Virus record (IMG/VR): IMGVR_UViG_3300045988_160053
Length of the DNA: 64,000 nucleotides
Strand: one strand, 5' to 3'
Source of the DNA: a virus
Both the position numbers and the translations under genes were made by a program. Positions 8,242 through 23,215 of this stretch are shown one piece after another (positions within the stretch are counted from its first letter, which is position 1; every line of letters starts with the position of its first letter). The notes under the pieces are model-generated. The model searched no databases, was not told where the DNA came from, and saw nothing but the letters and a program-made list of their open reading frames with translations.

Positions 8242-8270
8242 CTATTCCCCTCTTATAAGGAGGATATCAC

Positions 8271-8513
8271 ATGTATTATAAAGTAATCAAAAATGATGAA
8301 GTCGTAGATGTCCTTAATCATATCCTGTATATCAAATATCAGGAAAAACATAGTCTGTTGCTTCTATGTGATATCACAGAAGCACAGGCTATTTTAAGTT
8401 CAGACGGAAAATATGGATGGCACATTGAAGGTCTCTATAATTTTCCGCCTGATAATGACATTTATGCAATAAAAGAAATTTCAAAATATGAATATGACAA
8501 ATTGAAGAGGTGA
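8271..8513 (+). CDS. hypothetical protein (80 aa)
   Basis: AAGGAGG RBS 7 nt upstream of the ATG. Lies between fibre genes. No recognisable motif. Confidence 0.6.
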   Translation: MYYKVIKNDEVVDVLNHILYIKYQEKHSLLLLCDITEAQAILSSDGKYGWHIEGLYNFPPDNDIYAIKEISKYEYDKLKR

Positions 8514-8520
8514 TCACAGC

Positions 8521-9384
8521 ATGGCGTTAATTCCAACCTGGTATTCTGCATCAACTAAGCAAATTGCAGAAAAGGCTTTACAAAGAGGGGTGCTAAAATA
8601 CCCAGGACTTTGTTACATCCAAGACAGTAAGAGTATAGCGTGGGTGACCATCGACAACACATTAGAATATGTCAAAGGAGATAAACAGATTACAGATGTA
8701 AAATGCATCGGATCAAATCTTATGTTTTTCTCTGGAGATAAACTGCTTTTCTCTTATGACATATCTATGACTGATGAAGATAAAGATCATATTATTGAAG
8801 AGGTCAAGAAAACAATCGGATTGGATAATTATGTCAAATCTTCTGAGCTTTCTACTCTTTTAGATAATATAATCGGTAATCTTGAAGATAAGTCCACTGT
8901 TGTAGACTATATCAACAGCTTATCTTATAACAAATTATTTGACGTACCTATTGTAAATCTTATAGGTACACTTACTGTTCCTGTGAAGATATCATCACTC
9001 GATGATGGTATTTATAAAGTAAAAGGCCAATGTATCATTGGCGGAAACAATACTACTGTTCAATCTTCTGCAGACGATGTTCTGTATCTTGTATCTCATG
9101 ATGCTGATACTTCCAGCACAACAATCACAAAAATGCAAGGAAAATCTATTACATTGTATTTCATTCAGCAAGATGGTGAATATACGACTGATCGTTATGT
9201 CACTGAAAGCTGGATTAATGAACAGAATTTTGCAAGTGCTGATTCTGTAAAAGAATATGTTTCAAATATCATTGAAGAAACTGTTCTGGATGTTTTAGAT
9301 GAACATATTGACTCTGCTTTAGACCGAAAACTCGGAGGTATTGATTCCGAAGATTTAACAAATATATTTCAAGGAGGAAACTAA
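8521..9384 (+). CDS. hypothetical virion protein (287 aa)
   Basis: Long ORF in the same orientation, tightly packed between structural genes. No motif recognised. Confidence 0.65.
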   Translation: MALIPTWYSASTKQIAEKALQRGVLKYPGLCYIQDSKSIAWVTIDNTLEYVKGDKQITDVKCIGSNLMFFSGDKLLFSYDISMTDEDKDHIIEEVKKTIGLDNYVKSSELSTLLDNIIGNLEDKSTVVDYINSLSYNKLFDVPIVNLIGTLTVPVKISSLDDGIYKVKGQCIIGGNNTTVQSSADDVLYLVSHDADTSSTTITKMQGKSITLYFIQQDGEYTTDRYVTESWINEQNFASADSVKEYVSNIIEETVLDVLDEHIDSALDRKLGGIDSEDLTNIFQGGN

Positions 9385-9386
9385 TT

Positions 9387-10457
9387 ATGGCAAAATTACA
9401 GTTCGCTACACTTTCTAATCTTCAGGAGTTTTTAAATCTGCATAACGTACAGATCGACTCTAAAATCAGTGAGGCTGTCAAAAACTCAATTAAAACAGTA
9501 TCTCAGTCAGAAGACGGATACACACTTTATTTCTACACAAAAACTGCTCCAGTAACTATTGATGAAGCAGCATTTACTATTACTATTCCTCAGCCAACAG
9601 GTAAGGCAGATAAAGTAAAAGGAGCTATTTCCGGACATCTTGCAGGTCTTGATGCTAATGGTAATCTGGTAGATTCTGGAAAGGCAGCTACAGATTTCGA
9701 TGCAGCCGGAGCTGCTAACACAGCAAAAACAGAAGTAATGTCTTATGTTGGTACTATTCCTGCTGATGCAAAAGCTAAAGATGTAGTTTCTTATATTAAA
9801 GAAGCTGTAAAAACAGGCACATATGATGATTCTGCTCTAAAATCCAGTGTTGCAGCTAATACCGCAGCAATCAGTACTCTTAATGGAACCGGGGCTGGAT
9901 CCGTAAAGAAAGCTGTTTCTGATGCAGTTGCTCAGATTGTTAACGGTGCCCCAGAAGCGTATGACACGCTGAAGGAAATCTCTGATTGGATTTCTTCTCA
10001 TGCATCTGATGCAGCAGGAATGAATAGTCAGATTACTACCAATAAAGAGGATATCTCTAAGCTGAAAACACTTATCGGTACTCTCCCAAACACAGCAACA
10101 TCTAAAGATATCGTAAGTTATATTGCTGAATATGTTTCTAAGGCTCTTGCAGATTCTGACCTTTCTCAGTATGCGAAAGCTGAAGATCTGACAGCCGCTG
10201 TAGGAAGAATTGATGCTATTGAAAAGAAATTACCTACATTAGAAGCTGCTGATAAAAAGAATACCGAAGATATTACTGCTATTAAAGGCAGAATGGATAC
10301 AGCAGAAGGCAAAATTACTGCTGTAGAAAAAGATCTTGCTACTGAAAAACCGAAGATTGCTAAAAATGCATCTGATATTGCCGCTCTTAAAGGGCTTGTT
10401 GGAGATGGATATGAAGCAATTCCAAGTGCGTCTATCAAAGGTTTATTTACTGCGTAA
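9387..10457 (+). CDS. fibre-like coiled-coil protein
   Basis: AAGGAGG RBS. Ala/Lys/Asp-rich coiled coil with an internal repeat (AKDVVSYIKEAV / SKDIVSYIAEYV). The GAPEAYDTLKEISDWI motif is of the kind seen in phage fibre shafts. Confidence 0.65.
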   Translation: MAKLQFATLSNLQEFLNLHNVQIDSKISEAVKNSIKTVSQSEDGYTLYFYTKTAPVTIDEAAFTITIPQPTGKADKVKGAISGHLAGLDANGNLVDSGKAATDFDAAGAANTAKTEVMSYVGTIPADAKAKDVVSYIKEAVKTGTYDDSALKSSVAANTAAISTLNGTGAGSVKKAVSDAVAQIVNGAPEAYDTLKEISDWISSHASDAAGMNSQITTNKEDISKLKTLIGTLPNTATSKDIVSYIAEYVSKALADSDLSQYAKAEDLTAAVGRIDAIEKKLPTLEAADKKNTEDITAIKGRMDTAEGKITAVEKDLATEKPKIAKNASDIAALKGLVGDGYEAIPSASIKGLFTA

Positions 10458-10543: not shown

Positions 10544-13438
10544 ATGAAAGAACAATTTCTTAATCTCACTGGATTAACAGAACTGGTTGGTTATTTGAAG
10601 ACAAGTATAGCTAATCATAAAGAAATACTTCCATATGCTTCCAATAAGTTATTTCCGTCTGTTGGAGATATAAATACTATTTATATAAATACTGCTACGA
10701 ATACTATTTATCGTTGGGATAGCTCAAGCAAAACTTATATTACTCTAGCAAAAGCCGTAAAGTCTGTTGCTATTTCAGAAGCTACTGAAAACGGAAAAAT
10801 CACACTCACTGTAGATGGTAATAAAACTACTGTTCCTATTCATGGATTAGGATCTGCTGCATATACAAATTCAAGTGCTTACTCTCCTGCCGGGCATACT
10901 CATACAAAAGCTCAGGTAGGGCTTGGCAATGTAGATAATACTGCCGATGCAAATAAGAGTGTAAAACATGCAACTACTGCTGATAGTGCAACTACTGCAG
11001 GAACAGCTACAAATGTATCCGCTGGAGAAGGTACTGCTGATGCAGCTAGACATGTTTGGTTTTCTGACTCTACCACAGAGACAAAGCGAGTATACAGCGA
11101 TAAGTTTAAATATAATCCTGTTACTAATAATCTGACGGTAAATGTTACAGGAAATGCTGCGACTGCAAGTAGTGTCGCATGGGGTAACATTACAGAAAAA
11201 CCTTCTACCTATACTCCTTCTGCGCATAATCATAATGATTCAACTATTACTTCTCTCAACGCAAGTAAACTCTTTGGAACAATTGATATTGCAAGGCTTC
11301 CTCATGGAGCATTAGAACGTCTGGTTATTGTTGAAGATGATACTGCACGTTTTAAACTTACTACTGCTAATATTCAGCTTGGTGATACCGTAAAAGTAAC
11401 TAAGACTGAAAAAATGTATTATGTTGTTGATGAGAGCAAATTATCTTCTGAGGCTGGTTATTCAGTATATACTGCCGGAACTGCTACTTCTGTACCATGG
11501 TCTGGAGTTACTGAAAAGCCTAGCAGCTATCCACCAGCATCTCATAATCATGATGAACGTTATTATACCGAGACTGAGATGAATAGTAAATTAGCTGAAA
11601 AAGCTACAAAAGTACATACGCATACTAAAAGTGAAGTTGGATTAGGCAACGTTGACAATACTGCTGATGCCACAAAAAGTGTTAAATATGCTATTTCTGC
11701 AGGTAGCGCATCATCTGCCGCTGCTCTTACTTCTAATGCTGGATCATCAACTCAGCCAGTATATTTCTCAGGTGGTAAGCCAGTAGCTTGTTCATATACA
11801 CTTGGTAAGTCAGTGCCTGCAGATGCATTATTTACCGATCATACTTATGGAAACATGAAGGGTGCTACTTCTTCTTCCGCCGGAAGTGCTGGTCTTGTTC
11901 CTGCACCTAATATAGGAGAACAATTAAAATTTCTTCGTGCAGATGGTACATGGGTAATTCCTACAAATACGACATATTCTGTAGGTACATCAAGTTACTT
12001 AGGAATAACTAAGCTTTATACTGAAACTGGGTCGGCTACAGATGGTACCATGACTCAAAATGCTATTACTTCTGCTCTTAACGGGAAATCTCCTACCTCT
12101 CATACGCACAATTATGCAGGAAGTTCTAGTTCTGGTGGTGCTGCAAACTCCGCAAATAAACTAGCAACTGCTAGAACCGTATCTGGTGGAACTGACATCA
12201 CGCTAAGTTTTAACTATGATGGTAGTGGTAACTCCTCTGCAAATATCGGATTTTATAGTTCGTCTGCGAGTGTAGGCGACAAAAACAATTATCCATTCCA
12301 TCGATTCGCAAAACTGGATACTATTGCTGCAAGCTATTCAGATAAATCAACCACATTCTTTATCTCACAGGATTATAGTGGTGGTGGCTTCGGTATTGTA
12401 CGAATTGTATTACGTACGAATAACAGCAGCTTAGCATCGACAGTTGAAGTAAAATGGCTGGTTCGTTGTGGCTTAAGTGCGGATAGCGTACAAGTCGGAA
12501 TTTACAATGTTTTTGGAAAGACTTACGCAGATGCCTTCTTTAAAACAGGAGGATCGTATGCTGGAACTTGTTTCCGTACACTTGCAAGTGGTGCGCGTGG
12601 TGGTATTAGCAGAACTTGGGTGCTGGTCAATTCTTCAGAAGTAAGTGGAACCTCTGCAACAGATGCAAAAACATCTACCGAGTGTTATGCTACTATTGCA
12701 GCTGCTGGTACCGCACTTCATAAACAAGCATATAGTAGTATCGTTTCTGGTACTGATAGCGGTACTGCATCTTATGCGAATAGTGCTGGCAGTGCAAATT
12801 CTGTTGCTTGGGGTAATGTTACAGGTAAGCCATCTACATTCGCACCATCATCTCATACTCATAACTATGCAGGATCCTCTTCTGCTGGCGGTGCTGCTAC
12901 ATCAGCAATTAAATTATCCACACCTAGAAAAATTGGTAACGCATCTTTTGATGGTACTGCTGATATTACCTTATCTCAGATGGGACTTAATGTTCCTGTT
13001 GAAATTACAAAAGCTAACTATCTTGCAAAAAAGAAAGCTGGAACTTTAAATGCAAATACCTATTACAATGTTATTGATGAATATGATTCTGCAAATGTTA
13101 TTAACGACTCATCTGTAACAACCAACAGTACATTTTCAAGTACTAAATCGGAAAAAACATATGCAAAGAAAAGTACACTTGTTAATACTACTCTCACGGC
13201 TAGTAAATGGACTGGTTCCTCTGCTCCGTATACATATGTATTACCTGTATCTGGTGCGACTACTTCAAATATAGTAGAAATTAATTATGCTTCTAATGCA
13301 TCATCTCAAGCAATAGAGGCATATCAGAACGCTATGTTAGCAGATGGAGGGCAGACTACAAATCAGATTACTATAAAAGCAACCGAGAAACCAACTGTAG
13401 ATATTCCCATTACTATTGTTATAAGAAATGATTTATAA
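10544..13438 (+). CDS. tail fibre protein (964 aa) with repeated HxH and GLGNVDNTAD motifs
   Basis: Two copies of HTHTK(A/S)(Q/E)VGLGNVDNTADA(N/T)KSVK(H/Y)A. Three copies of W(G/S)(N/G)(I/V)T(E/G)KPS(T/S)(Y/F)xP(S/A)SH(N/T)H. Two copies of SHTHNYAGSSS(S/A)GGAA. KLATARTVSG / KLSTPRKIGNASFDGTADIT are typical fibre repeat motifs. Confidence 0.85.
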   Translation: MKEQFLNLTGLTELVGYLKTSIANHKEILPYASNKLFPSVGDINTIYINTATNTIYRWDSSSKTYITLAKAVKSVAISEATENGKITLTVDGNKTTVPIHGLGSAAYTNSSAYSPAGHTHTKAQVGLGNVDNTADANKSVKHATTADSATTAGTATNVSAGEGTADAARHVWFSDSTTETKRVYSDKFKYNPVTNNLTVNVTGNAATASSVAWGNITEKPSTYTPSAHNHNDSTITSLNASKLFGTIDIARLPHGALERLVIVEDDTARFKLTTANIQLGDTVKVTKTEKMYYVVDESKLSSEAGYSVYTAGTATSVPWSGVTEKPSSYPPASHNHDERYYTETEMNSKLAEKATKVHTHTKSEVGLGNVDNTADATKSVKYAISAGSASSAAALTSNAGSSTQPVYFSGGKPVACSYTLGKSVPADALFTDHTYGNMKGATSSSAGSAGLVPAPNIGEQLKFLRADGTWVIPTNTTYSVGTSSYLGITKLYTETGSATDGTMTQNAITSALNGKSPTSHTHNYAGSSSSGGAANSANKLATARTVSGGTDITLSFNYDGSGNSSANIGFYSSSASVGDKNNYPFHRFAKLDTIAASYSDKSTTFFISQDYSGGGFGIVRIVLRTNNSSLASTVEVKWLVRCGLSADSVQVGIYNVFGKTYADAFFKTGGSYAGTCFRTLASGARGGISRTWVLVNSSEVSGTSATDAKTSTECYATIAAAGTALHKQAYSSIVSGTDSGTASYANSAGSANSVAWGNVTGKPSTFAPSSHTHNYAGSSSAGGAATSAIKLSTPRKIGNASFDGTADITLSQMGLNVPVEITKANYLAKKKAGTLNANTYYNVIDEYDSANVINDSSVTTNSTFSSTKSEKTYAKKSTLVNTTLTASKWTGSSAPYTYVLPVSGATTSNIVEINYASNASSQAIEAYQNAMLADGGQTTNQITIKATEKPTVDIPITIVIRNDL

Positions 13439-13452
13439 AAGGAGGCGATAAC

Positions 13453-13995
13453 ATGGCAATTTACAAAGGTGAACAATGTCTTGCTGGAGTTGGTAAGAAT
13501 GCAACTATTAAAATTGGTACTGCTAAAACAGGTACTTCGGCTGCAGTAACCAATTCTGGTACAGATACAGATGCAATATTAAATTTTACACTGCCCAAAG
13601 GTGATCAGGGAGTTGGTATTTCAAGTGTTATCCCTCATTATCTTGCAAGTTCTAAATCGCAGGGAGTGACCAGATCAACTACTGGATGGGCGACTTCCGC
13701 TCAGGTTATGACATCTACAAACAAATATTTGTGGTGCTATCATGAATTTGTTTTATCAAATAATAATCATCTGTATACAAATGCAACCGTTATAGGTGTT
13801 TATGGAGATAAAGGTGATCCGGGCACAACTGATTACAATGGATTACAGAATAAACCGGTCGTTAATGGAGCTGTAACTGCTTATCAGTCAGATATTATGA
13901 AATCTCAGTTAAGGAATGTGACATTCTCTACTGAAGAACCTAAAATAACTGATGGTAAACCTGGTGATATGTGGGTGGTGTATGGCGATGAGTAA
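13453..13995 (+). CDS. small fibre-associated protein (180 aa), cassette 1 adaptor
   Basis: AAGGAGG RBS. The GDKGDPG and C-terminal STEEPKITDGKPGDMWVVY motifs are paralogous to the C-terminus of the 91-aa ORF at 16634. Confidence 0.65.
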   Translation: MAIYKGEQCLAGVGKNATIKIGTAKTGTSAAVTNSGTDTDAILNFTLPKGDQGVGISSVIPHYLASSKSQGVTRSTTGWATSAQVMTSTNKYLWCYHEFVLSNNNHLYTNATVIGVYGDKGDPGTTDYNGLQNKPVVNGAVTAYQSDIMKSQLRNVTFSTEEPKITDGKPGDMWVVYGDE

Positions 13996-16618
13996 TATTA
14001 AAACTGGTGATATTTTAAACTTTGATTATACTGGTACTGTCCAAACTGTAACACTTCCTAAAGGTACATATAAGTTGGAGTGTTGGGGTGCTCAAGGAGG
14101 ATACAGTTCTTCTAATTCAGGAATAGAGGTTGGTATGGGCGGAAAAGGTGGATACTCCGCTGGAACTATTACACTAAACCAAAAAACACTTATATATATT
14201 TATACTGGTGGAGTTGGTAGCATAAGTGGCAACGGTAAAGCAGATGGTGGATTTCCTAATGGTGGTTCATCTTGGGCTTCCAGCACAAGCGAAGGTGCTG
14301 GTGGTGGCGGTGGATCATCCGATATCCGTATTGGTACCGATTCATTGTATGCTCGTGTTATCGTAGCTGGAGGTGGCGGAGGTGGCGGTGAAGACAACGA
14401 AACTGGCGGATATGGTGGCGGTGAAACTGGCGGAACTTCAGGTTCTGGAACACCTGGTAGTCAAACTGCTCCAAGTGGATATTTTGGAATCGGCGGTCAT
14501 ACTTCCTATGATGGTGGAGGTGGTGGCGGTGGATGGTATGGTGCTGATCCAGCCGGTGGTCAAACAACTCCAGCTACCGGTAGCAGTGGAAGTGACACAT
14601 CTGGCTCTCCTGGAGGATCTGGTTACGTTTATACTTCTGCTACAGCCTCTAATTACCCGTCAGGTTGTTTATTAAACTCTTCTTATTACTTATCTGCTGC
14701 TAAAACCATAGCAGGTAACACTTCTTTTACATCTCCCACAGGTTCATCTGAGACAGGGCACTCTGGGAACGGCTATTGTCGAATTACTGTTATTGAATGC
14801 AAGAATACGGCGCTATATACCAGAATAAACAATTCAATGAAAAAGGCTACTGCTTTTTATTTCAAATTAAATAATAACAAAATGTACGGCGTTGGATCTG
14901 CTAATTATAATGGTTCTGTTATGAATTTTGATTATACTGGTTCGGTTCAAACTGTTACATTGGCTCCTGGTACATATAAACTTGAATGCTGGGGCGCTCA
15001 AGGTGGGAATGGATCATCTAATGGTAATTCTAATATAAATGCAGTTGGTGGTCTTGGTGGATATAGTGTTGGCACCATTACATTAAGTAAAACACAAAAA
15101 GTATATATATATTCTGGTGGAAAAGGACAAACTAAATCAAATACCGGTAGCTATTCTACTGTTAATGGTGGATTTAACGGCGGTGGGTCAAATTATACTT
15201 GTGGTTCCGGAGGTTCTGGTGGCGGTGGATCGGATATAAGGATCGGAACTGATTCATTATATGCAAGAGTAATTGTTGCAGGCGGCGGTTCTGGAACAGG
15301 ATGGACAATTAAAGGTGCCGCTGGCGGTGGAATATTAGGCTTATCAAACTATAATTCATCTTACAATAGTACTCAAACAGCAGGAGGAATAGCTTATACT
15401 TCAGCTTACAATATAATGCCCACAGCTGGCACTTTTGGTATAGGTGGCAATGGTTCCGGTTCTTCAGAAGGCGGTTCTGGCGGTGGAGGCGGCTGGTATG
15501 GAGGTGGCGGAGCCGGATATACGGGCGGTTCTAGTGGTGGATCAGGTTATGTCTACACTTCTGTCACTGCTTCAAATTATCCAAATGGTTGTTTACTTAA
15601 CTCTTCTTATTATCTTTCTAATGCTCAAACTATTGCCGGAGATCAATCGTTCCCTGCTCCTTCTGGTTCTACAGAAACTGGTCATTCTGGTAATGGACAT
15701 GTAAAAATCACTAAATTATCAGATGTAATATATCTTACTCATGCTAAGAACAACATAATGGATTTTAATTATACAGGTTCAGTACAATCTAAAACTCTAA
15801 AACCAGGTACGTATACAATAGAATGCTGGGGTGGCCAAGGAGGAACTTACAGTAGTTACATAGGCGGATACGGTGGTTATTCCAAGGGTACTATTACTCT
15901 TACTGAAGCAACTACTGTTTATATATCTGTTGGTGGGGCTGGATCTTCCTCTTCTACTGCTGCAGGATTCAATGGTGGAGGAACTGGTATTTCTTCTGGT
16001 AGAGGTGGTGGAGGAGCTACAGATGTTCGTATAGGTCAAAATTCTCTATATTCAAGAGTTATCGTAGCCGGAGGTGGCGGCGGAGCTGGTGTAACAAGTG
16101 CCAATGCTAATCCTTGTGGTTGTGGCGGTGGAGAATATGGTGGAGATGGATATTACAATGATACCACTGGTTCTTATACTATAGGTCAAAATAGATGTGG
16201 TGGTAGTGCCTCACAAACTGCAGGTGGCAAAACATGGAGCACGAGCACTCAGGCTACTTTTGGTCAAGGCGGAAATGCTTCAGGCTACTCTTGTGGTGGT
16301 GGCGGAGGCGGCTGGTATGGCGGTGGTGGAGCCTATGACAGTGATTCTGACTCTGATGGACGTTGGGGTGGAGGAGGCTCAGGATATGTTTATACCTCTT
16401 CTACAGCTAAAAATTACCCTAACGGATGTCTACTAAATTCTACTCATTATCTCACAAATGCTCAGACTATCGCAGGAAACACTTCTTTTACTTCTCCTAC
16501 AGGATCAGCAGAAACTGGTCACACAGGCAGTGGATTCTGCAGAATTACAAATTTGAACCCAACACAATATGGATTATACGTAAAAACGAACTCTGGTTGG
16601 AAACACATAGATTTATAA
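13982..16618 (+). CDS. fibre protein with three tandem glycine-rich (ALK/LTK Gly_rich-type) domains
   Basis: The track ORF starts at 13952. ATG at 13982 or 13988 is more likely, giving a 14-nt overlap with the upstream stop. Three modules of about 265 aa (about 14015-14797, 14918-15718, 15755-16555) each contain NFDYTGxxQxxTLxPGTYKLECWGAQGG, GGxGGYSxGTITL, IYIYxGG, GGFNGGG, GGGGSDIRIG, LYARVIVAGGGGG, GGGGGGWYG, GGSGYVYTS, NYPxGCLLNSxYYL and ETGHxGNGxCRIT. Confidence 0.8.
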   Translation: MAMSNIKTGDILNFDYTGTVQTVTLPKGTYKLECWGAQGGYSSSNSGIEVGMGGKGGYSAGTITLNQKTLIYIYTGGVGSISGNGKADGGFPNGGSSWASSTSEGAGGGGGSSDIRIGTDSLYARVIVAGGGGGGGEDNETGGYGGGETGGTSGSGTPGSQTAPSGYFGIGGHTSYDGGGGGGGWYGADPAGGQTTPATGSSGSDTSGSPGGSGYVYTSATASNYPSGCLLNSSYYLSAAKTIAGNTSFTSPTGSSETGHSGNGYCRITVIECKNTALYTRINNSMKKATAFYFKLNNNKMYGVGSANYNGSVMNFDYTGSVQTVTLAPGTYKLECWGAQGGNGSSNGNSNINAVGGLGGYSVGTITLSKTQKVYIYSGGKGQTKSNTGSYSTVNGGFNGGGSNYTCGSGGSGGGGSDIRIGTDSLYARVIVAGGGSGTGWTIKGAAGGGILGLSNYNSSYNSTQTAGGIAYTSAYNIMPTAGTFGIGGNGSGSSEGGSGGGGGWYGGGGAGYTGGSSGGSGYVYTSVTASNYPNGCLLNSSYYLSNAQTIAGDQSFPAPSGSTETGHSGNGHVKITKLSDVIYLTHAKNNIMDFNYTGSVQSKTLKPGTYTIECWGGQGGTYSSYIGGYGGYSKGTITLTEATTVYISVGGAGSSSSTAAGFNGGGTGISSGRGGGGATDVRIGQNSLYSRVIVAGGGGGAGVTSANANPCGCGGGEYGGDGYYNDTTGSYTIGQNRCGGSASQTAGGKTWSTSTQATFGQGGNASGYSCGGGGGGWYGGGGAYDSDSDSDGRWGGGGSGYVYTSSTAKNYPNGCLLNSTHYLTNAQTIAGNTSFTSPTGSAETGHTGSGFCRITNLNPTQYGLYVKTNSGWKHIDL

Positions 16619-16633
16619 AAGGAGGGCTTAACT

Positions 16634-16909
16634 ATGCCGATTATATTTCACGGAACAGGTAGTGGCGGCTCTGCTAAAAAACTAAAAACCGCACGAACTA
16701 TTAATGGTACGAATTTTGATGGTACAGCTAATATTACTACTGCTAATTGGGGAACAACAAGAACCGTTACTGTAGGAAATACAAGTAAATCTGTAAATGG
16801 ATCTGGAAACGTAAGTTGGTCGTTAGCTGAAATAGGTATTCATCTTTCAACAACGGAACCTGCAGCTAGTGACGGAAAAAATGGAGATATTTGGATTACT
16901 TATGAATAA
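16634..16909 (+). CDS. small fibre-associated protein (91 aa), cassette 2 adaptor
   Basis: AAGGAGGG RBS. Carries the fibre repeat motif KKLKTARTINGTNFDGTANITT. The C-terminus STTEPAASDGKNGDIWITYE is paralogous to the end of ORF 13453. Confidence 0.7.
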   Translation: MPIIFHGTGSGGSAKKLKTARTINGTNFDGTANITTANWGTTRTVTVGNTSKSVNGSGNVSWSLAEIGIHLSTTEPAASDGKNGDIWITYE

Positions 16910-16933
16910 AAGACTGAAAGGAAGGTGAGGCTT

Positions 16934-19375
16934 ATGGCTTGTAGTAATGGATGTGGAACTTCTTGTTCTACTGACTGCACTCATTCATCATCTGGTGGAT
17001 GTGGTGGTTCTTGTGGTGGTTCTTGCTCTACTAACTGTACTGGTGGATGTTCTGGATATTGTGATGGAACTTGTAAGGGAGGTTCAGGAAGTACTTGTTC
17101 TGACTGTACTGCCAAATGTGCTAATGACTGTACCGGAGCTTGTACAAATGCTTGTGTAACCGGATGCACTGGCTGTGGGAACAACTGTGATGGAGACTGT
17201 ACAAGCGCCTGTGCTCAAAGGTGCTCTAATGATTGCAATGCTGCATGTACTGCTACTTGTGCTTATGATTGCGAACATACTTGCACTGCTTCTTGTGCCA
17301 ACGACTGCACCAGTTGTGGTGGATCTTGCTCAAGTAATTGCTCAGGAAATTGTGATTCCGGTTGTTATACTGGTTGTTATGGTTGTGATTCTACCTGTTC
17401 TGGTGGTTGTTCTGGCACTTGTAATACTACTTGCACTACCACTTGCGCCAATGACTGCACTGGCGGGTGCAAAGGAACCTGTACAGGTGGATGTGGTGGT
17501 TCTTGTGATAATTCATGCGGCTTTTCTTGTGAAGCTTCATGTGATAACAATTGTACTGCTGTTTGTTCTGTATCTTCTGTGTATGGTGGAAACTCAGAGA
17601 AGAGTGTATTGAATTTTGCTTATACAGGTAAAGCTCAATCTGTAACCCTTGAGCCTGGAAAATATGTTCTTGAATGTTGGGGAGCACAGGGAGGTTATCG
17701 TTCTAATTCTAGTTATGGTGGAAAAGGTGGCTATTCTACAGGGACTTTAACATTGACTCAAAAAACTACTATATACATATATGTCGGTGGATCTGGAAAT
17801 TCTGTTACATCAGCATCAAATTCAATCTATCCCGGAGGTTTCAATGGTGGTGGATATAGATACAATTATAAAGGTGGTGGTGGCGCTACTGATATTCGTA
17901 TTGGAAGTGCTTCTTTATATGCCCGTGTTATCGTTGCAGGTGGCGGTGGTTCTGATGGTAGTCCTAATTATAGTGGTGGGTATGCAGGTGGTGTATCTGG
18001 TACTAGGGGAAATTTTGGATGTGGTTCATATGGATATGGTGGATCTCAAACTGCTTCATATTCATCTTTAAGTGCTATTAATTCACAAGGCACCACAAAT
18101 TCTTCTTCTAACTGTGCTGCTGGTTTTGGTTTCGGTGGTTTTGGATGTTATTACGCTTCAGGTTACGGTGGAGCCGGTGGCGGAGGATGGTACGGTGGAC
18201 AAGGTACTTATCCTGATGGTTCTGGAGATGATGATGGCGGTGGCGGAGGTGGATCTGGTTACGTTTATACTTCCTCTTCTGCTTCTAACTATCCTCAAGG
18301 CTGTCTCCTAAATTCATCTTACTATCTTTCTGATGCTTCTAATTTATCTGGCAATGAATCTTTCAAATCTCCTTCTGGTGCTACAGAAACTGGTCATTCT
18401 GATAATGGCTATTGTAGGATTACCTGTTATGTCAAAAAGAAAACTCTACATTGTAAAATGAACAATGAAATTAAAAAAGCAGCTCCAGTATTTATGAAAA
18501 TGAACAATAAAATTTATGATGCTGGCGCTAATGCTGTAATGGATTTTGCTTATACAGGAACAGCTCAAGCTATATCACTTCCAAGAGGAAAATATATTAT
18601 AGAATGCTGGGGCGCTCAAGGCGGTTCATATAGTAGTTATTATGGTGGTGCTGGAGGATATTCTGTCGGAACCATAACTCTAACTAAAAATTCTACGGAT
18701 TTATATATTTATGTTGGTGGACAACCAGAAGCTACAACTTCAACAGGTGAAACACCTGGTGGATTTAACGGAGGAGGAAAAGGTTGTTCAAGAACTTATA
18801 ATTATAGTAGTTATGGACAAGGTGGCGGCGGTGCAACCGATGTTCGTATAGGAAAAAATGATCTTTATGCTAGAGTTATTGTCGCTGGTGGCGGCGGAGG
18901 TTCATCATCAGAAAATTCGCTTACAACAAAATATGGCGGTGGAACTACTGGTGGTTCTTCTGCTTCTGGATATGGAGCTACACAAACTGCTGCAGGTACA
19001 AATGGTTCGTTTGGTCAAGGTGGTTCTGCAACAACTTCTGGAACTAATTATAATTATGGTTCCGGCGGTGGTGGAGGTGGATGGTATGGTGGTGGTGCAT
19101 GTTCTGATTATAGTGACAGCACTAACTACCGAGGCTATAATGGCGGAGGTTCAGGATATGTTTACACTTCAGCTACTGCTGCTAATTATCCAAGTGGTAA
19201 TTATGTAAATTCTTCTTACTACCTTACCAATGCGCAAACTATAGCAGGAAATCAATCATTTAAATCACCTGATGGAACAAATGAAACAGGCCATACCGGA
19301 AATGGTTTCTGTCGAATCACCCGTAAATCAGGAAAAATATTTGTAAAACAAAACGGTTCATGGATCAAAGTATAA
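16934..19375 (+). CDS. fibre protein: N-terminal CXXX (Cys-every-4th) repeat domain + two glycine-rich domains
   Basis: The track start at 16925 is a GTG. The ATG at 16934 has a GGAAGGTGAGG RBS. Residues 3-211 (16940-17566) hold about 52 Cys, almost all spaced C-x3-C. Gly-rich modules 4 (about 17605-18430) and 5 (about 18536-19327) share all motifs of the preceding protein. Confidence 0.85.
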   Translation: MACSNGCGTSCSTDCTHSSSGGCGGSCGGSCSTNCTGGCSGYCDGTCKGGSGSTCSDCTAKCANDCTGACTNACVTGCTGCGNNCDGDCTSACAQRCSNDCNAACTATCAYDCEHTCTASCANDCTSCGGSCSSNCSGNCDSGCYTGCYGCDSTCSGGCSGTCNTTCTTTCANDCTGGCKGTCTGGCGGSCDNSCGFSCEASCDNNCTAVCSVSSVYGGNSEKSVLNFAYTGKAQSVTLEPGKYVLECWGAQGGYRSNSSYGGKGGYSTGTLTLTQKTTIYIYVGGSGNSVTSASNSIYPGGFNGGGYRYNYKGGGGATDIRIGSASLYARVIVAGGGGSDGSPNYSGGYAGGVSGTRGNFGCGSYGYGGSQTASYSSLSAINSQGTTNSSSNCAAGFGFGGFGCYYASGYGGAGGGGWYGGQGTYPDGSGDDDGGGGGGSGYVYTSSSASNYPQGCLLNSSYYLSDASNLSGNESFKSPSGATETGHSDNGYCRITCYVKKKTLHCKMNNEIKKAAPVFMKMNNKIYDAGANAVMDFAYTGTAQAISLPRGKYIIECWGAQGGSYSSYYGGAGGYSVGTITLTKNSTDLYIYVGGQPEATTSTGETPGGFNGGGKGCSRTYNYSSYGQGGGGATDVRIGKNDLYARVIVAGGGGGSSSENSLTTKYGGGTTGGSSASGYGATQTAAGTNGSFGQGGSATTSGTNYNYGSGGGGGGWYGGGACSDYSDSTNYRGYNGGGSGYVYTSATAANYPSGNYVNSSYYLTNAQTIAGNQSFKSPDGTNETGHTGNGFCRITRKSGKIFVKQNGSWIKV

Positions 19376-19413
19376 CACTTTGGTCCATATTTAAATTACG
19401 AGGAGGAATTGTT

Positions 19414-19812
19414 ATGAAACTTATTTTTAAAGACGGACAAGAATTAGTTATTACTCGTGCTAACGATACATATTCATATGAAGGATATAAAGATGGGTTA
19501 GGAAATGATATGAACAAAAATATTGTAGCTACTATTTCTATCTTCAATTCTGATAAATCTTTAAACACTATTAAGGATATGATTACTGATGACAATAGAA
19601 CAGGTTTTAAAATTATTTATGGGAATACCCAGAAAGATTATACTGGAATGAAAATTGAAAGTATTTCAGAAGAAATCTCCAATGAAAGAAGTGTTATTAA
19701 TATCTCATTAGCTACAGATAAAACCATAGCTCCTACTGAGACCACTGGAACAACAACAGAAAAAACTAAAGAAGAAACTAAAGAAAAAACGGAAACAGCT
19801 TCTGATAAATAA
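19414..19812 (+). CDS. hypothetical protein (132 aa) with T/E/K-rich tail
   Basis: The track ORF begins at 19360, but the ATG at 19414 is preceded by an AGGAGG RBS (19401-19406). No recognisable domain. Confidence 0.6.
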   Translation: MKLIFKDGQELVITRANDTYSYEGYKDGLGNDMNKNIVATISIFNSDKSLNTIKDMITDDNRTGFKIIYGNTQKDYTGMKIESISEEISNERSVINISLATDKTIAPTETTGTTTEKTKEETKEKTETASDK

Positions 19813-19837
19813 TTAAGAATGAAAGGAATATAAGGAT

Positions 19838-20176
19838 ATGAGAAAAATAATCGTAAAGGTTGATAAAGAAAAAGCTACAGAGCTTGAAAGAGTTAATTTT
19901 GAATTAAACTTCGTAAAAGACATTGTACAGAGAGTTATTGAATCACATCCAAGCGATTTAGAACTCATCAATGGAGATACTCTTATGTCTTACAATAAAC
20001 GTGGTGCAGAATTACAGAGAAAGTATGCTGCTCTTGCAAATGAGATGGAAAAGGAATACATCCCAGAATACCTCGAAGGTCATCAGTATAGTTGGATTAT
20101 TCCAAATAATTCTGATGAAATGACTATTACTATTAAATGTAATTGTGAGATTCCAGAATTAGAGGGAATAGCATGA
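19838..20176 (+). CDS. small protein translationally coupled to the radical SAM maturase (candidate maturase partner / peptide-recognition protein)
   Basis: 112 aa. Its TGA overlaps the ATG of the radical SAM gene (ATGA at 20173-20176). Function is inferred from the coupling only. Confidence 0.65.
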   Translation: MRKIIVKVDKEKATELERVNFELNFVKDIVQRVIESHPSDLELINGDTLMSYNKRGAELQRKYAALANEMEKEYIPEYLEGHQYSWIIPNNSDEMTITIKCNCEIPELEGIA

Positions 20177-21504
20177 AAAGAACAGAACAATATTCGGACC
20201 AGATAGCTAGACTTTATCCATCTAAGAAGGTAAAAACCGATGACGGACAAAGAATATTAACACAGAGTATCACTTTTCAAGTAACTGATGATTGCAACCT
20301 TGCGTGTCTATATTGTTACCAAGGACACAAAGGAAAAAATCGAATGTCGTTTGAAACAGCTAAGAAATTCTTTGATTTAGTTGTATCAGGTGAAAAAGGT
20401 TTTAAATCTTATATCAATCCAGAGAAATCTCCTGGATTGGTTGTAGATTTCATTGGAGGAGAACCCTTTCTTGAGATAGAGCTTATAGATCAAATCTGTA
20501 CTTATATTATGGATAAACTCATAGAGTTGGATCATCCTTGGGCCATGAAAACTATGTTCTCTATTTGTTCAAATGGTGTTTTATACAGGGACGAAAAAGT
20601 ACAAGCATTTCTTCGTAAATGGGCCAATAGATTATCTTTCTCAGTTACTATTGATGGGAATAAAGAATTACATGATTCCTGCCGAGTTTTTCCAGATGGT
20701 GGTCCAAGTTATGACATAGCTGTCGATGCTGCGTCAGATTGGATGAAACGTGGAAATCATATGGGAAGCAAGATCACAATTGCTCCGGGCAATATCAGCT
20801 TTCTATACGATGCTATTAAGCATATGGTCGATCTTGGATATGATGAAATCAATGCCAATTGTGTATATGAAAAGGGTTGGACACCTGTACATGCAACTGT
20901 TCTTTATGATCAAATGAAACGTATATCTGATTATTTCTTGGAACAGAATTTTGATTTTGAACGTGATTTCTTCTGTTCCCTTTATAATGAAGACTTCTTT
21001 CAGCCTAAAGATCCTGATGATTTACAAAGTTGGTGTGGAGGCGTTGGTAATTCAATGATTGCTTGCGATCCTCAAGGTCGCATATTTCCATGTATCAGAT
21101 ATATGGAATCTTCTCTTAATGGAGAGCAAGAACCGTACTCTATTGGTGATGTAGATAATGGTATAGGATGCACAGAATGTTATAAATGCAGAATTAATTG
21201 TATGGCAAAAATAGATAGAAGGACACAGAGTACAGATGAATGTTTCTATTGTCCTATAGCTGCAGGATGTTCTAATTGTTCTGGTTATGATTATCAAGTG
21301 AATGGTACTCCTGACTCAAAAGCTACTTATATATGTGTTATGCATAAAGCTCGTGCTCTTGGGAATCTGTATTTCTGGAATAAATATTATAGAAAAAATA
21401 ATATGAGTAAGCGAATGAAAAACTATGTGCCAGATGAATGGGCGCTTGAGATTATTTCTGAATCAGAACTTAATATGTTGAAAGAACTTGAAAGAGAGGA
21501 TTAA
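20173..21504 (+). CDS. radical SAM / SPASM-domain peptide(protein)-modifying maturase (anSME-like)
   Basis: CX3CX2C cluster motif in VTDDCNLACLYCYQG (about 20293-20316). GGEPFL SAM-binding motif. Cys-rich C-terminal SPASM-like region: WCGGVGNSMIACDPQGRIFPCIRY ... CTECYKCRINC ... ECFYCPIAAGCSNCSGYDY. Confidence 0.9.
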   Translation: MKRTEQYSDQIARLYPSKKVKTDDGQRILTQSITFQVTDDCNLACLYCYQGHKGKNRMSFETAKKFFDLVVSGEKGFKSYINPEKSPGLVVDFIGGEPFLEIELIDQICTYIMDKLIELDHPWAMKTMFSICSNGVLYRDEKVQAFLRKWANRLSFSVTIDGNKELHDSCRVFPDGGPSYDIAVDAASDWMKRGNHMGSKITIAPGNISFLYDAIKHMVDLGYDEINANCVYEKGWTPVHATVLYDQMKRISDYFLEQNFDFERDFFCSLYNEDFFQPKDPDDLQSWCGGVGNSMIACDPQGRIFPCIRYMESSLNGEQEPYSIGDVDNGIGCTECYKCRINCMAKIDRRTQSTDECFYCPIAAGCSNCSGYDYQVNGTPDSKATYICVMHKARALGNLYFWNKYYRKNNMSKRMKNYVPDEWALEIISESELNMLKELERED

Positions 21505-21519
21505 AAGCCTCTCTTTTTT
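21493..21519 (+). terminator. rho-independent terminator overlapping the radical SAM stop codon
   Basis: AGAGAGG-attaaaag-CCTCTCT followed by TTTTT. The stop codon (21502-21504) lies in the loop. Confidence 0.7.
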
Positions 21520-21544: not shown

Positions 21545-23215
21545 ATGGCAGAAATTAAAGGAATTGATGTTTCCAGATGGAATGGAAACATCGACTGGAA
21601 AACTGTTGCTAGTTATGGAATGGGCTTCGCTATCCTAAGAATTACAGAAAAAGGAAATATTGTTGATAGCACATTCGAACCTAATTATAAAGGCTGTATT
21701 GAGAATAAGATTCCTGTTGGAGTCTATAAATACAGCTATGCTACTACTATTGCTCAGATTGAAGATGAAGCAAATGTAGTTATTAAAACATTGAATAAAA
21801 GAAAACTGGATTATCCAGTGTTTCTTGATATAGAGGATAAATGTCAGGAGAATTTATCTGACAGTTTAATGATGAAAATGATCGAAGCTTTTAGAGCTAT
21901 TATTGTCAAAGCTGGATATAAATTTGGTATTTACTGTGGTTATTCTTGGTATCAGAACCAGTTACCAAAAGGTGCTAAAAAGTACGATTGCTGGGTTGCT
22001 CGATATCCTAATAATGATACCGGTGAATTACAGGAAAGATTAAGAGTTCCTGCTTCTACTGGTGTTATTGGATGGCAATATTCTAGTAAGGCAACCATTC
22101 CTGGTATTCCAACAAAAACCGATCGAAGTGTATTCTATAAAGACTATTCTAAATCTTCTACTACTTCTACAAACTCTCTCAAACCAACAACTACACAAGG
22201 AAGTGATACTATGAATAAAGATAAAGCTATTGATGCTCTTATTGCTTGCGCTGAAAATGAGGTTGGATATTTAGAGAAGAAATCTAATTCTCAGCTTGAT
22301 GATAAAACTGCAAATGCAGGTTACAATAACTACACTAAATACTGGAGAGACGTATATCCTCAGTATCAGGCACAGGCTTGGTGTGCAGCGTTTGTGAGTT
22401 GGTGCATGATGAAAACATTCGGTCTTGATGTAGCTAAAAAACTCCTTAAACATTGGCCTTATGTATACTGTCCTACTCTTGGAAATCTCTTCACAAAGTA
22501 TGCAAATCCACAGCGAGGAGACATTGTGATCTTCTATCGTAACGGTACTTTTGCACATACAGGAATTGTCACAAAAGTTGAAGGTGATAAGTTTTATACT
22601 ATTGAAGGGAATACTTCAGCTGGCTCTACTGTTGTTCCAAATGGTGGAGGAGTTTTTGCTAAATCTTATTACAATTCTAATCTTCCAGGCACTAAATTCT
22701 GTCGTCCAGACTATTCTATTGTCACATCTATTTTAACATCTACTGCACCTGTACAGCCATCTTATACTGCATGGGTAGGTTCTTGTACAGCTAATGGAAC
22801 AGATGTATTCTCAGACGCTACAGGAGCTTCTAAGCTAAGTACATATCCTAAACTTAATGCAGGTAATCTTGTGGATATCATCGGTGAATCTGGTACAAGA
22901 TATCAGGTTCGTATCGCTGCAAAATATATAGGGTATGTAGAAAAATCTAACATTAAAAATCCTAATACTCCTGCTGCAACAACTACAAAAAAATATCCAT
23001 TTGTAGGAAAAGTAACTGCAAGTAAATTGAATGTTCGCAAAAAACCCGGTACTGAACATCCATTACTTCCAGAGTATCCGATGTTAAATAAAGACAATCT
23101 TGTTAATGTCCTCGGAGTTACAAAAGATACTAAAGGTAACAGATGGTACAAAGTATCAATTACTAAAAATGAATATGTTGGCTATGTATCAGCCAAATAT
23201 ATTACTAAGGCATAA
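21545..23215 (+). CDS. endolysin: GH25 muramidase + CHAP peptidase/amidase + 2 SH3b wall-binding domains
   Basis: AGGAGG RBS before the ATG at 21545 (track start 21488 is upstream). GH25: GIDVSRWNGNIDW, FLDIED, WVARY, GWQYS. CHAP: QAWCAAFVSWC ... FAHTGIV ... EGNTS. Two SH3b-like repeats: LNAGNLVDIIGESGTRYQV and NLVNVLGVTKDTKGNRWYKV. Confidence 0.9.
   Translation: MAEIKGIDVSRWNGNIDWKTVASYGMGFAILRITEKGNIVDSTFEPNYKGCIENKIPVGVYKYSYATTIAQIEDEANVVIKTLNKRKLDYPVFLDIEDKCQENLSDSLMMKMIEAFRAIIVKAGYKFGIYCGYSWYQNQLPKGAKKYDCWVARYPNNDTGELQERLRVPASTGVIGWQYSSKATIPGIPTKTDRSVFYKDYSKSSTTSTNSLKPTTTQGSDTMNKDKAIDALIACAENEVGYLEKKSNSQLDDKTANAGYNNYTKYWRDVYPQYQAQAWCAAFVSWCMMKTFGLDVAKKLLKHWPYVYCPTLGNLFTKYANPQRGDIVIFYRNGTFAHTGIVTKVEGDKFYTIEGNTSAGSTVVPNGGGVFAKSYYNSNLPGTKFCRPDYSIVTSILTSTAPVQPSYTAWVGSCTANGTDVFSDATGASKLSTYPKLNAGNLVDIIGESGTRYQVRIAAKYIGYVEKSNIKNPNTPAATTTKKYPFVGKVTASKLNVRKKPGTEHPLLPEYPMLNKDNLVNVLGVTKDTKGNRWYKVSITKNEYVGYVSAKYITKA

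Follow-up and report, generated by a model that had tools for sequence, protein, structure and literature searches.

We describe a four-gene module at positions 16,934 to 21,504 of a 64,000-nucleotide stretch of viral DNA (IMG/VR record IMGVR_UViG_3300045988_160053; the whole stretch is called the window), which encodes on the plus strand an 813-amino acid (aa) fiber-type protein with a Cys at every fourth residue of its N-terminal domain (the CXXX repeat), a 132-aa protein, a 112-aa partner protein, and a radical S-adenosylmethionine (rSAM)/SPASM enzyme. The module is probably a phage-borne version of the CXXX-repeat rSAM maturation system in which the enzyme acts on a structural tail protein of the phage. 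By analogy with the characterized relatives of the enzyme, the phage probably modifies its own fiber chemically, and the modification is most likely a set of thioether cross-links, of a kind that has been described for no virus particle. The initial annotation of this DNA, made by a model from the sequence alone, had put the module forward as a candidate new system of the window; we found it to be widespread: members of the Firmicutes branch of the family carry it as a rule, it occurs in several phage lineages, and in that branch it lies almost always among tail-fiber and baseplate genes. It represents a conserved use, not previously described, of a known but uncharacterized maturation system inside phage tail modules. 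The most far-reaching form of the proposal, that gut Firmicutes phages routinely install dozens of thioether staples in the CXXX segments of their tail fibers by means of an rSAM enzyme and a partner of novel fold, is advanced here tentatively, as a serious possibility.

The proposed substrate is the 813-aa protein (16934-19375, plus strand), whose gene has its own ribosome-binding site (RBS; AGGAAGGTGAGG) and ATG and whose product is annotated as 'hypothetical protein' in Blautia isolates. Its CXXX-repeat domain (residues 1-215; 16934-17578, plus strand) contains 52 Cys, or 24% of the residues, and 46 of the 51 Cys-Cys spacings are 4, which bears out what the initial annotation had read in this N-terminal domain; the X positions are mostly G, S, T, N, D, or A, and the remaining 588 residues of the protein hold only 12 Cys. 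When 52 Cys were placed at random in 215 positions 100,000 times, at most 18 spacings of 4 were obtained, never 46. Tandem Repeats Finder revealed no DNA tandem repeat behind the periodicity of the CXXX region, only arrays of about 2 copies. In alignments with relatives whose rSAM enzymes are 81% and 67% identical to that of the window, 51 to 52 of the 52 Cys aligned, while the non-Cys positions were 31 to 39% identical. Among 30 variants from the same clade, not a single Cys was lost and the X residues varied; in one of them, a middle segment had been swapped in with the Cys register intact. Since the Cys are kept in relatives and variants while the X positions diverge, these comparisons indicate that selection acts on the Cys spacing. 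The long Cys-Xaa-Xaa-Xaa array, which is the trait of TIGR04114 and TIGR04117 targets, is present in the 813-aa protein; TIGR04117 itself scored 20.4 bits against residues 1-222, below its cutoff of 50, and the full-length protein gave no match.

The C-terminal two-thirds of the 813-aa protein, like an 888-aa paralog encoded nearby, matches PF12810 (ALK_LTK_GRD; 325.9 bits, gathering threshold 24.5). The match falls into two stretches, the best covering residues 239-501 of the 816-aa reading and the second following it, which correspond to two TNF-like/glycine-rich modules at 17639-19372 (plus strand; boundaries approximate). The receptor-binding tip of the Pam3 gp24 fiber has a TNF-like and glycine-rich fold of this type, which resembles the ligand-binding domain of ALK (PMC9608196), and by this analogy the modules are likely the receptor-binding part of the fiber. 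The likeness includes S16 gp38 and the ALK/LTK glycine-rich domain; unlike the 813-aa protein, however, the known fibers attach by alpha-helical or beta-helical N-terminal parts, and neither a Cys-every-fourth domain nor an rSAM enzyme has been reported for them. Among the PHROG families, 1589, 5811, and 7388 matched the protein, and phrog_6085 matched on the Cys repeat. The protein begins with MACSNGCG and has no signal peptide.

The enzyme proposed to act on this repeat is encoded three genes downstream (20173-21504, plus strand; 443 aa) and was identified by profile match, Cys motifs, and structure comparison. All the motifs named in the initial annotation are present: the CX3CX2C cluster (C41-x3-C45-x2-C48), GGEPFL at residues 95-100, and the SPASM-pattern cysteines C288, C307, C357, C360, C366, C369, and C388, which were invariant among five diverse members. 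The suspected membership in the CXXX-repeat maturase family was confirmed by TIGR04115, which scored 520 bits (E 3.9e-156; cutoff 350) with residues 30-401 spanning model positions 1-359 of 359; the identical protein in NCBI is named 'radical SAM peptide maturase, CXXX-repeat target family'. After TIGR04115, the top three characterized families are all thioether formers, each scoring under its cutoff: PapB (NF047865; 166.5 bits, cutoff 340), the SCIFF maturase (TIGR03974; 99 bits, cutoff 425), and QhpD (96 bits, cutoff 453). Weaker matches were to cyclophane, sactipeptide, anaerobic sulfatase-maturing enzyme (anSME), and other maturases. Clustering with the sulfatase maturases, which the initial annotation had considered, was not observed, and this identity was rejected, as TIGR03942 (41.5 bits, cutoff 349) and NF010308 (37.8 bits, cutoff 484) matched the N-terminal rSAM core only. 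The nearest solved structure is that of CteB (5WGG), aligned from CteB residue 91, and maturase models that include a RiPP (ribosome-made peptide modified after translation) recognition element, or RRE, matched from model positions 84-93 on, with the query entering at residues 25-33. Because the alignments begin at these points, the window enzyme has no fused N-terminal RRE.

To place the module among its relatives, we surveyed 160 loci. A scan of viral contigs with the rSAM enzyme gave 191 relatives, 80 of which were kept, and a scan of genomes with a five-sequence alignment gave 80 loci. A CXXX open reading frame (ORF) lay upstream of the rSAM gene and on the same strand in 76 of the 80 viral loci, the other four having less than 2.1 kb of upstream sequence, and a CXXX gene adjoined the rSAM gene in 70 of the 80 genome loci, so that the pairing seen in the window holds across these neighborhoods. 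The window clade comprises 40 viral loci with rSAM enzymes 81 to 100% identical, and the fusion of CXXX and glycine-rich parts was found in all that have enough flanking sequence. Clade B (40 viral loci; about 67% identity; contigs of 30-60 kb) carries the module between baseplate-J and further fiber genes. Its first gene encodes a 168- to 195-aa protein with an N-terminal domain of about 110 aa and a 17-Cys CXXX tail, and its second a stand-alone CXXX protein of 224 to 267 aa, whose start in one type of locus (L076; MACSKGCGTSC) resembles that of the window protein, the conserved N terminus being MACSxGCGTSC; a 101-aa homolog of the 132-aa gene (in some loci), a partner gene overlapping the rSAM gene, and the rSAM gene follow in this order. 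A third lineage is represented by L001 (34% identity), where the genes for a 193-aa protein with a CXXX tail, a partner of 94 aa, and the rSAM enzyme lie among baseplate-like genes.

The 28 closer genome loci belong to Blautia, Lachnospiraceae, Oscillospiraceae, and other Clostridia. Most of them encode proteins of 170 to 650 aa with an N-terminal domain and a CXXX tail, and tail, baseplate, or fiber markers were found in at least 20 of the 28. The longest array occurs in a metagenome-assembled genome of an uncultured 'Tenericutes' (L095, 5177-7129), where a 650-aa protein has an N-terminal domain of about 120 aa followed by about 144 Cys in CXXX register; its gene lies directly 3' of a tail-fiber gene and 5' of the genes for the partner and a 505-aa rSAM enzyme. 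From the conserved adjacency of CXXX, partner, and rSAM genes, the conserved Cys register, and the relatives of the enzyme family, we infer that the CXXX domain is the substrate of the enzyme. That the 813-aa protein is a component of the tail is suggested in turn by gene context, since the module sits in tail gene clusters in at least three phage lineages, the repeat is fused to PF12810 modules, and Pam3 gp24 offers a precedent for their fold.

We also scanned the viral contigs from the substrate side, searching for 8 Cys codons at 12-nt spacing. The matches listed were mostly simple 12-nt DNA repeats in the Cys frame, and among them were at least three genuine CXXX proteins, including those of L269, which has both rSAM and partner, L272, and L237. 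L272 (2-2583) encodes two paralogous proteins with an N-terminal domain and a CXXX tail behind fiber-like ORFs of 1,102 and 1,900 aa; downstream lie a 332-aa ORF and a truncated rSAM gene (CNLNCSFC, GGEP) with no detectable similarity to the window enzyme, and a different rSAM subfamily may have been recruited there to the same kind of substrate. The L237 protein (5715-6815 on a 292-kb viral contig; 367 aa) has a window-like layout, with an N-terminal 44-Cys CXXX domain and a C-terminal domain without the Cys pattern.

Most of the CXXX relatives (proteins P0088-P0150) bear the precomputed Pfam domain PF27846. In this set, the non-Cys domain lies N- or C-terminal to the repeat and often contains the pattern hydrophobic-x2-L-x3-hydrophobic-x2-E-x2-RR, which could serve the maturase or the partner as a docking element.

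The CXXX-repeat rSAM maturation system (NCBIfam TIGR04114-04119) was defined bioinformatically, and Bacteroidales loci such as L002 are typical of it. The roughly 52 more distant genome loci, mainly from Bacteroidales, have short CXXX proteins with signal peptides, the rSAM enzyme, TIGR04119, and TIGR04116. The phage version shares with the cellular system the enzyme family (TIGR04115), an adjoining target with a long Cys-Xaa3 array, and a small associated protein of about 90 to 110 aa, but differs from it in several respects. It lacks the second SPASM-type maturase, TIGR04119: a search for this family in the window and all phage-type loci returned only the rSAM enzyme itself, whereas a true second maturase (235 bits) was found in L002. 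Its partner misses the TIGR04116 model and is encoded upstream of and overlapping the rSAM gene, while the cellular protein is encoded downstream. Finally, the phage targets have no signal peptide and are tail-module proteins, with the repeat in the window fused to two glycine-rich modules. The cellular CXXX targets are proteins of 100 to 370 aa with signal peptides and extra domains, such as a 369-aa Bacteroidales lipoprotein, and look like exported surface proteins modified before export. The statement in the initial annotation that these families were defined for small peptides therefore reflects an artefact of naming. What it held to be new was the size of the substrate together with its place in a phage particle; since cellular targets are already proteins of 100 to 370 aa, the novelty lies in the virion context and not in substrate size. 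In the literature searched, we found neither CXXX-repeat systems nor the modification of phage structural proteins by rSAM enzymes described.

The Bacteroidales CXXX proteins (L002 2222-2746; P0141) carry N-terminal signals of the twin-arginine or lipoprotein type (for example, SRREFFKNAAKSVLPILG...), and in one of them an OB-fold-like domain precedes the repeat.

The 112-aa partner (19838-20176, plus strand) is translationally coupled to the rSAM gene through an ATGA overlap of stop and start at 20173, as initially annotated. The same annotation had considered for the system, with membership left to be checked, the family named 'CXXX repeat peptide modification system protein' (TIGR04116, CXXX_rpt_assoc); membership of the partner did not hold, because TIGR04116 (cutoff 50 bits) did not match it even at E up to 10. 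Family scans with NCBIfam, Pfam, and PHROGs at the same limit gave no match for either the 112-aa or the 132-aa protein. When all ORFs of the 163 fetched loci were searched with iterated profiles, however, one partner homolog per locus was recovered in 155 of the 163. A profile built from phage and Firmicutes partners only recovered about 15 Bacteroidales proteins at E-values of 2e-5 to 9e-4 with no off-target hit, in what is a small, context-restricted ORF database; of this recovered set, the L002 and L157 proteins were scanned and are true TIGR04116 members (105 and 85 bits). The partner is thus best described, on profile evidence, as a putative distant relative of TIGR04116 and not as a member. 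Its AlphaFold2 (AF2) model (predicted local distance difference test score, pLDDT, 89) runs from an N-terminal strand through a long alpha-hairpin to two strands at the C terminus. A PqqD/RRE-like fold was considered and rejected, as Foldseek gave generic helical-hairpin matches only.

We propose that these components act together as follows. As the late genes of the prophage are expressed, the 813-aa fiber protein and smaller amounts of the partner and the rSAM enzyme would be made from one transcript. The partner, presumably a substrate chaperone and always translationally coupled to an enzyme without an RRE, would most likely hold or present the Cys-rich segment, and the enzyme would then proceed along the N-terminal domain with its 52 Cys. 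As its closest characterized relatives suggest by analogy, the enzyme would abstract hydrogen from a side-chain or backbone carbon of a neighboring Ser, Thr, Asn, or Asp and join that carbon to the Cys sulfur. The outcome would be a dense thioether ladder, that is, a rigid stalk that resists reduction and proteolysis and bears the two glycine-rich receptor-binding modules. Thioethers would suit the anaerobic, reducing gut, where disulfides are unreliable.

A thioether between the Cys sulfur and a carbon of a neighboring residue is the likeliest product by analogy. PapB joins Cys to Asp Cbeta in CX3D motifs, six times in PapA (freyrasin), and accepts spacings of 0-6 (PMC9413430). The acceptor carbon is Thr Cgamma for SCIFF maturases and Asn Cbeta for NxxcB; QhpD forms intramolecular Cys-Asp/Glu thioethers within a protein that is not released as a peptide but persists as a structural subunit (PMC8326336). 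In the window, Ser, Thr, Asn, Asp, or Glu occurs in 49 of the 51 inter-Cys segments, and these acceptor-containing segments (49/51) match the acceptor types known for PapB, CteB, NxxcB, and QhpD. PapB, the SCIFF maturase CteB, and NxxcB resemble the proposed system as SPASM rSAM enzymes that place several Cys-to-side-chain-carbon thioethers in repeated short motifs, and PapB is the best-scoring of them. The window enzyme nevertheless falls below the PapB and SCIFF cutoffs, is not a member of either family, and lacks a fused RRE, and its module, unlike ranthipeptide systems, has no leader peptide, protease, or exporter. Compared with PapA, a secreted peptide of about 50 aa with 6 Cys, the window substrate is a large structural protein with 52 Cys and mostly no Asp. 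The QhpD/QhpC pair, the third-best characterized family, is similar in that rSAM-made thioethers lie in a lasting structural subunit; it differs in that this subunit belongs to a cellular enzyme and has a few specific cross-links, no repeat array, and no phage context. NCBIfam and Pfam scans of the module's four genes and of the endolysin next to it found no recognizable peptidase or exporter; this speaks against a secreted RiPP and fits modification in place.

Several observations weigh against a tail-modifying, thioether-forming system, and some of them bear on alternatives to it. We found no biochemical study of any TIGR04115 member in the literature, which makes the reaction an extrapolation. 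In addition, Asp or Glu occurs in only 15 of the 51 inter-Cys segments, so that PapB-type Cys-Asp chemistry cannot span the whole repeat and the acceptors would need to be mixed. With the same enzyme and substrate, the chemistry could instead be another one, acting on the repeat Cys or on residues near them with no cross-link formed, such as conversion of Cys to formylglycine as by anSME, epimerization, or C-methylation, or else formation of a Calpha-thioether (sactionine) in place of beta or gamma links, giving a reactive or protease-resistant segment and not a stapled rod. We consider this unlikely, given that the three best characterized relatives and the nearest structure are all Cys-thioether formers, that the anSME families reach only 38-41 bits, and that every Cys is strictly conserved at fixed spacing, as fits Cys in a regular intramolecular link; the points in its favor are that TIGR04115 is uncharacterized, that SPASM enzymes catalyze many reactions, as the weaker cyclophane, sactipeptide, anSME, and other maturase matches of the window enzyme illustrate, and that most repeats lack Asp or Glu. 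It is also in line with such a reaction that anSME, too, abstracts the Cbeta hydrogen from Cys or Ser (PMC8326336).

Structure prediction gave no confident fold for the CXXX domain itself (AF2 model from a 28-sequence alignment; pLDDT 46), and a genuine CXXX protein, that of L237, has no rSAM gene within 5.7 kb on one side, the other side lying off the locus. A lack of confident fold in the unmodified sequence, together with a content of 24% Cys separated by small residues, could also be explained if the domain were a metallothionein-like stalk that binds metal or iron-sulfur clusters, in which the Cys stay thiolates and the rSAM enzyme acts elsewhere or aids loading. This is very improbable, since a RiPP-type rSAM/SPASM maturase strictly accompanies the CXXX genes in phage and cellular loci alike, the relatives of the enzyme family consume Cys thiols in cross-links, and the module contains no metal-handling gene.

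As to the place of the product in the virion, the PHROG families that match the glycine-rich part are labeled 'unknown function', and the module lies just before the lysis genes, which is also the usual place of accessory 'moron' genes. The module might accordingly be cargo outside the virion, a modified adhesin, decoy, or toxin-like protein that the lysogen displays or that is set free when the cell lyses, and as such a giant RiPP-like product of the prophage. Its position beside the lysis genes, at the end of the structural block, is typical of morons, and the Bacteroidales cellular homologs, exported by lipoprotein- or TAT-type signals, are unrelated to phages. On the other hand, clade B, L001, L272, and many genome loci embed the module between baseplate and fiber genes, with fiber genes on both sides; the window protein (MACSNGCG) has no signal peptide; the fusion is to fiber-tip modules that the neighboring 888-aa paralog has in common; and the module has the orientation of the late operon, with short gaps only between the two. 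We therefore think cargo outside the virion improbable. Incorporation of the 813-aa protein into the virion is what the gene context, with tail PHROGs upstream and the endolysin downstream, would predict.

The remaining points against the proposed system concern the partner. Its profile-profile alignment with TIGR04116 by hhalign is collinear over 87 columns and weak (probability 35%, E 4e-4), and because the probability is only 35% we do not call it a TIGR04116 member. The E-values that tie it to this family come from the small, restricted database, and a Foldseek comparison of its model with the PDB found generic helical hairpins only, with a best E of 0.6.

If the module is a tail-modifying thioether system, RiPP chemistry would extend beyond small secreted peptides, and phages would rely on it in building some of the machinery of infection. 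The widespread and unstudied rSAM family TIGR04115/04116 would gain a first biological role and a natural substrate, and there would be an explanation for the gene set conserved in the prophages of Blautia and of other abundant gut Clostridia. The product would be a covalently laddered protein rod of a new kind, one adapted to habitats that are anoxic and reducing, and its maker a naturally processive enzyme that handles 17 to 144 Cys sites in each substrate, which makes it interesting for protein stapling. The modification would also join the short list of virion reinforcements as a covalent change installed by an enzyme, and would constitute a new class of enzymatic cross-linking. In the HK97 capsid 'chainmail', autocatalytic isopeptide cross-links stabilize the capsid. 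The likeness to HK97 is conceptual only, in that covalent links stabilize a virion component, and there is no sequence relationship; the proposed difference is that a dedicated phage-encoded radical enzyme acts here on a tail-fiber domain. The proposal is directly testable, since the prophage is present in cultured Blautia isolates. Lysogens of this kind include 'Ruminococcus sp.' AM40-10AC and AM45-9BH and Blautia wexlerae carrying RHT11454.1.

The module belongs to a late block of plus-strand genes that extends from 1 to about 24 kb of the window. The block starts with a 2,407-aa ORF (1018-8241) that matches only PHROG families of unknown function (phrog_14959, phrog_24896) and is possibly a tape-measure or giant tail protein. 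Proteins matching tail and tail-fiber PHROGs follow at 9387-10457, 10544-13438, and 13453-13995, and then the 888-aa paralog of the 813-aa protein (13952-16618), which matches PHROGs and has three PF12810 modules (459 bits) and no CXXX domain. Directly 5' of the CXXX gene lies the gene for a 91-aa tail-fiber-like protein (16634-16909; PHROG tail-fiber families, E 3e-12 and weaker), and an endolysin with GH25, CHAP, and SH3 domains in Pfam (21545-23215) ends the structural block. All these genes are on the plus strand. The three ORFs of the fiber region (13952-16618, 16634-16909, and 16925-19375) share a reading frame, with single TAA stops and 15-nt spacers between them. Recoding or readthrough across them was considered and rejected, and they are taken as separate genes, because the gene downstream of each junction (the 91-aa gene or the CXXX gene) is preceded by an RBS and has a start of its own, and because no tRNA genes are present in the window.

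The minus strand from 24461 to 63954 encodes an integrase, DNA polymerase III alpha, a RecD-like helicase, a PD-(D/E)XK nuclease, the anaerobic ribonucleotide reductase NrdD, a NAMPT/NAPRTase-like enzyme, and adenylosuccinate synthetase. Because of this set of integrase, replication, and metabolic genes with an anaerobic ribonucleotide reductase, the element is a large temperate phage of an anaerobe (Blautia) that carries nucleotide- and NAD-salvage genes; related contigs reach 177 kb. Proteins identical to the rSAM enzyme, the fiber protein, and the partner are present in NCBI records from Blautia wexlerae and from the 'Ruminococcus sp.' isolates AM40-10AC and AM45-9BH, and, depending on the protein, the assembled contigs that carry it number from 804 to more than 1,000 (at least 804 for the fiber protein). 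The prophage is very common in the human-gut bacterium Blautia. A megablast search with the first 24 kb of the window found no relative among deposited phages, and tblastn detected relatives at more than 30% identity in two unannotated gut contigs only.

The 132-aa protein (19414-19812, plus strand; ATG at 19414, RBS GAGGAGG) belongs to no family matched in the scans. The window clade has homologs of it, as do 28 of the 40 loci of clade B and a single genome locus from Blautia (L083); none was found in the L076-type clade B loci, in L001, or in the other genome loci examined. The suggestion that this ORF is part of the system therefore stands for the window clade and those 28 clade B loci, where it is an accessory of the module, but does not extend to the system in general, as the gene is lineage-specific.

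Two hairpins on the plus strand flank the three genes that follow the fiber gene. A 12-bp hairpin (19360-19388), found in a scan for terminator-like elements and in the sequence, covers the stop codon of the fiber gene ahead of the 132-aa, partner, and rSAM genes; it is possibly a partial terminator or attenuator that keeps the expression of the maturase genes below that of the structural gene. A 9-bp hairpin (21491-21516; stem AAAGAGAGG/CCTCTCTTT) overlaps the stop codon of the rSAM gene and is followed by TTTATT. The terminator that the initial annotation had placed at the end of the block is borne out as far as this hairpin and T-run, plausibly an intrinsic terminator closing the module; the scanner listed it on the minus strand only.

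A further observation concerns the junction between the two CXXX genes of clade B. In L052-type loci (8132-9310), the stand-alone CXXX ORF (8639-9310) has no ATG, GTG, or TTG start and is in frame with the CXXX-tailed 168-aa ORF across a single TAA, the sole nearby ATG being out of frame; stop-codon readthrough or a non-canonical start could yield one long CXXX protein there. At the same junction, the L076-type loci (8327-9664) instead show TAA TGA and, after it, an RBS and an ATG.

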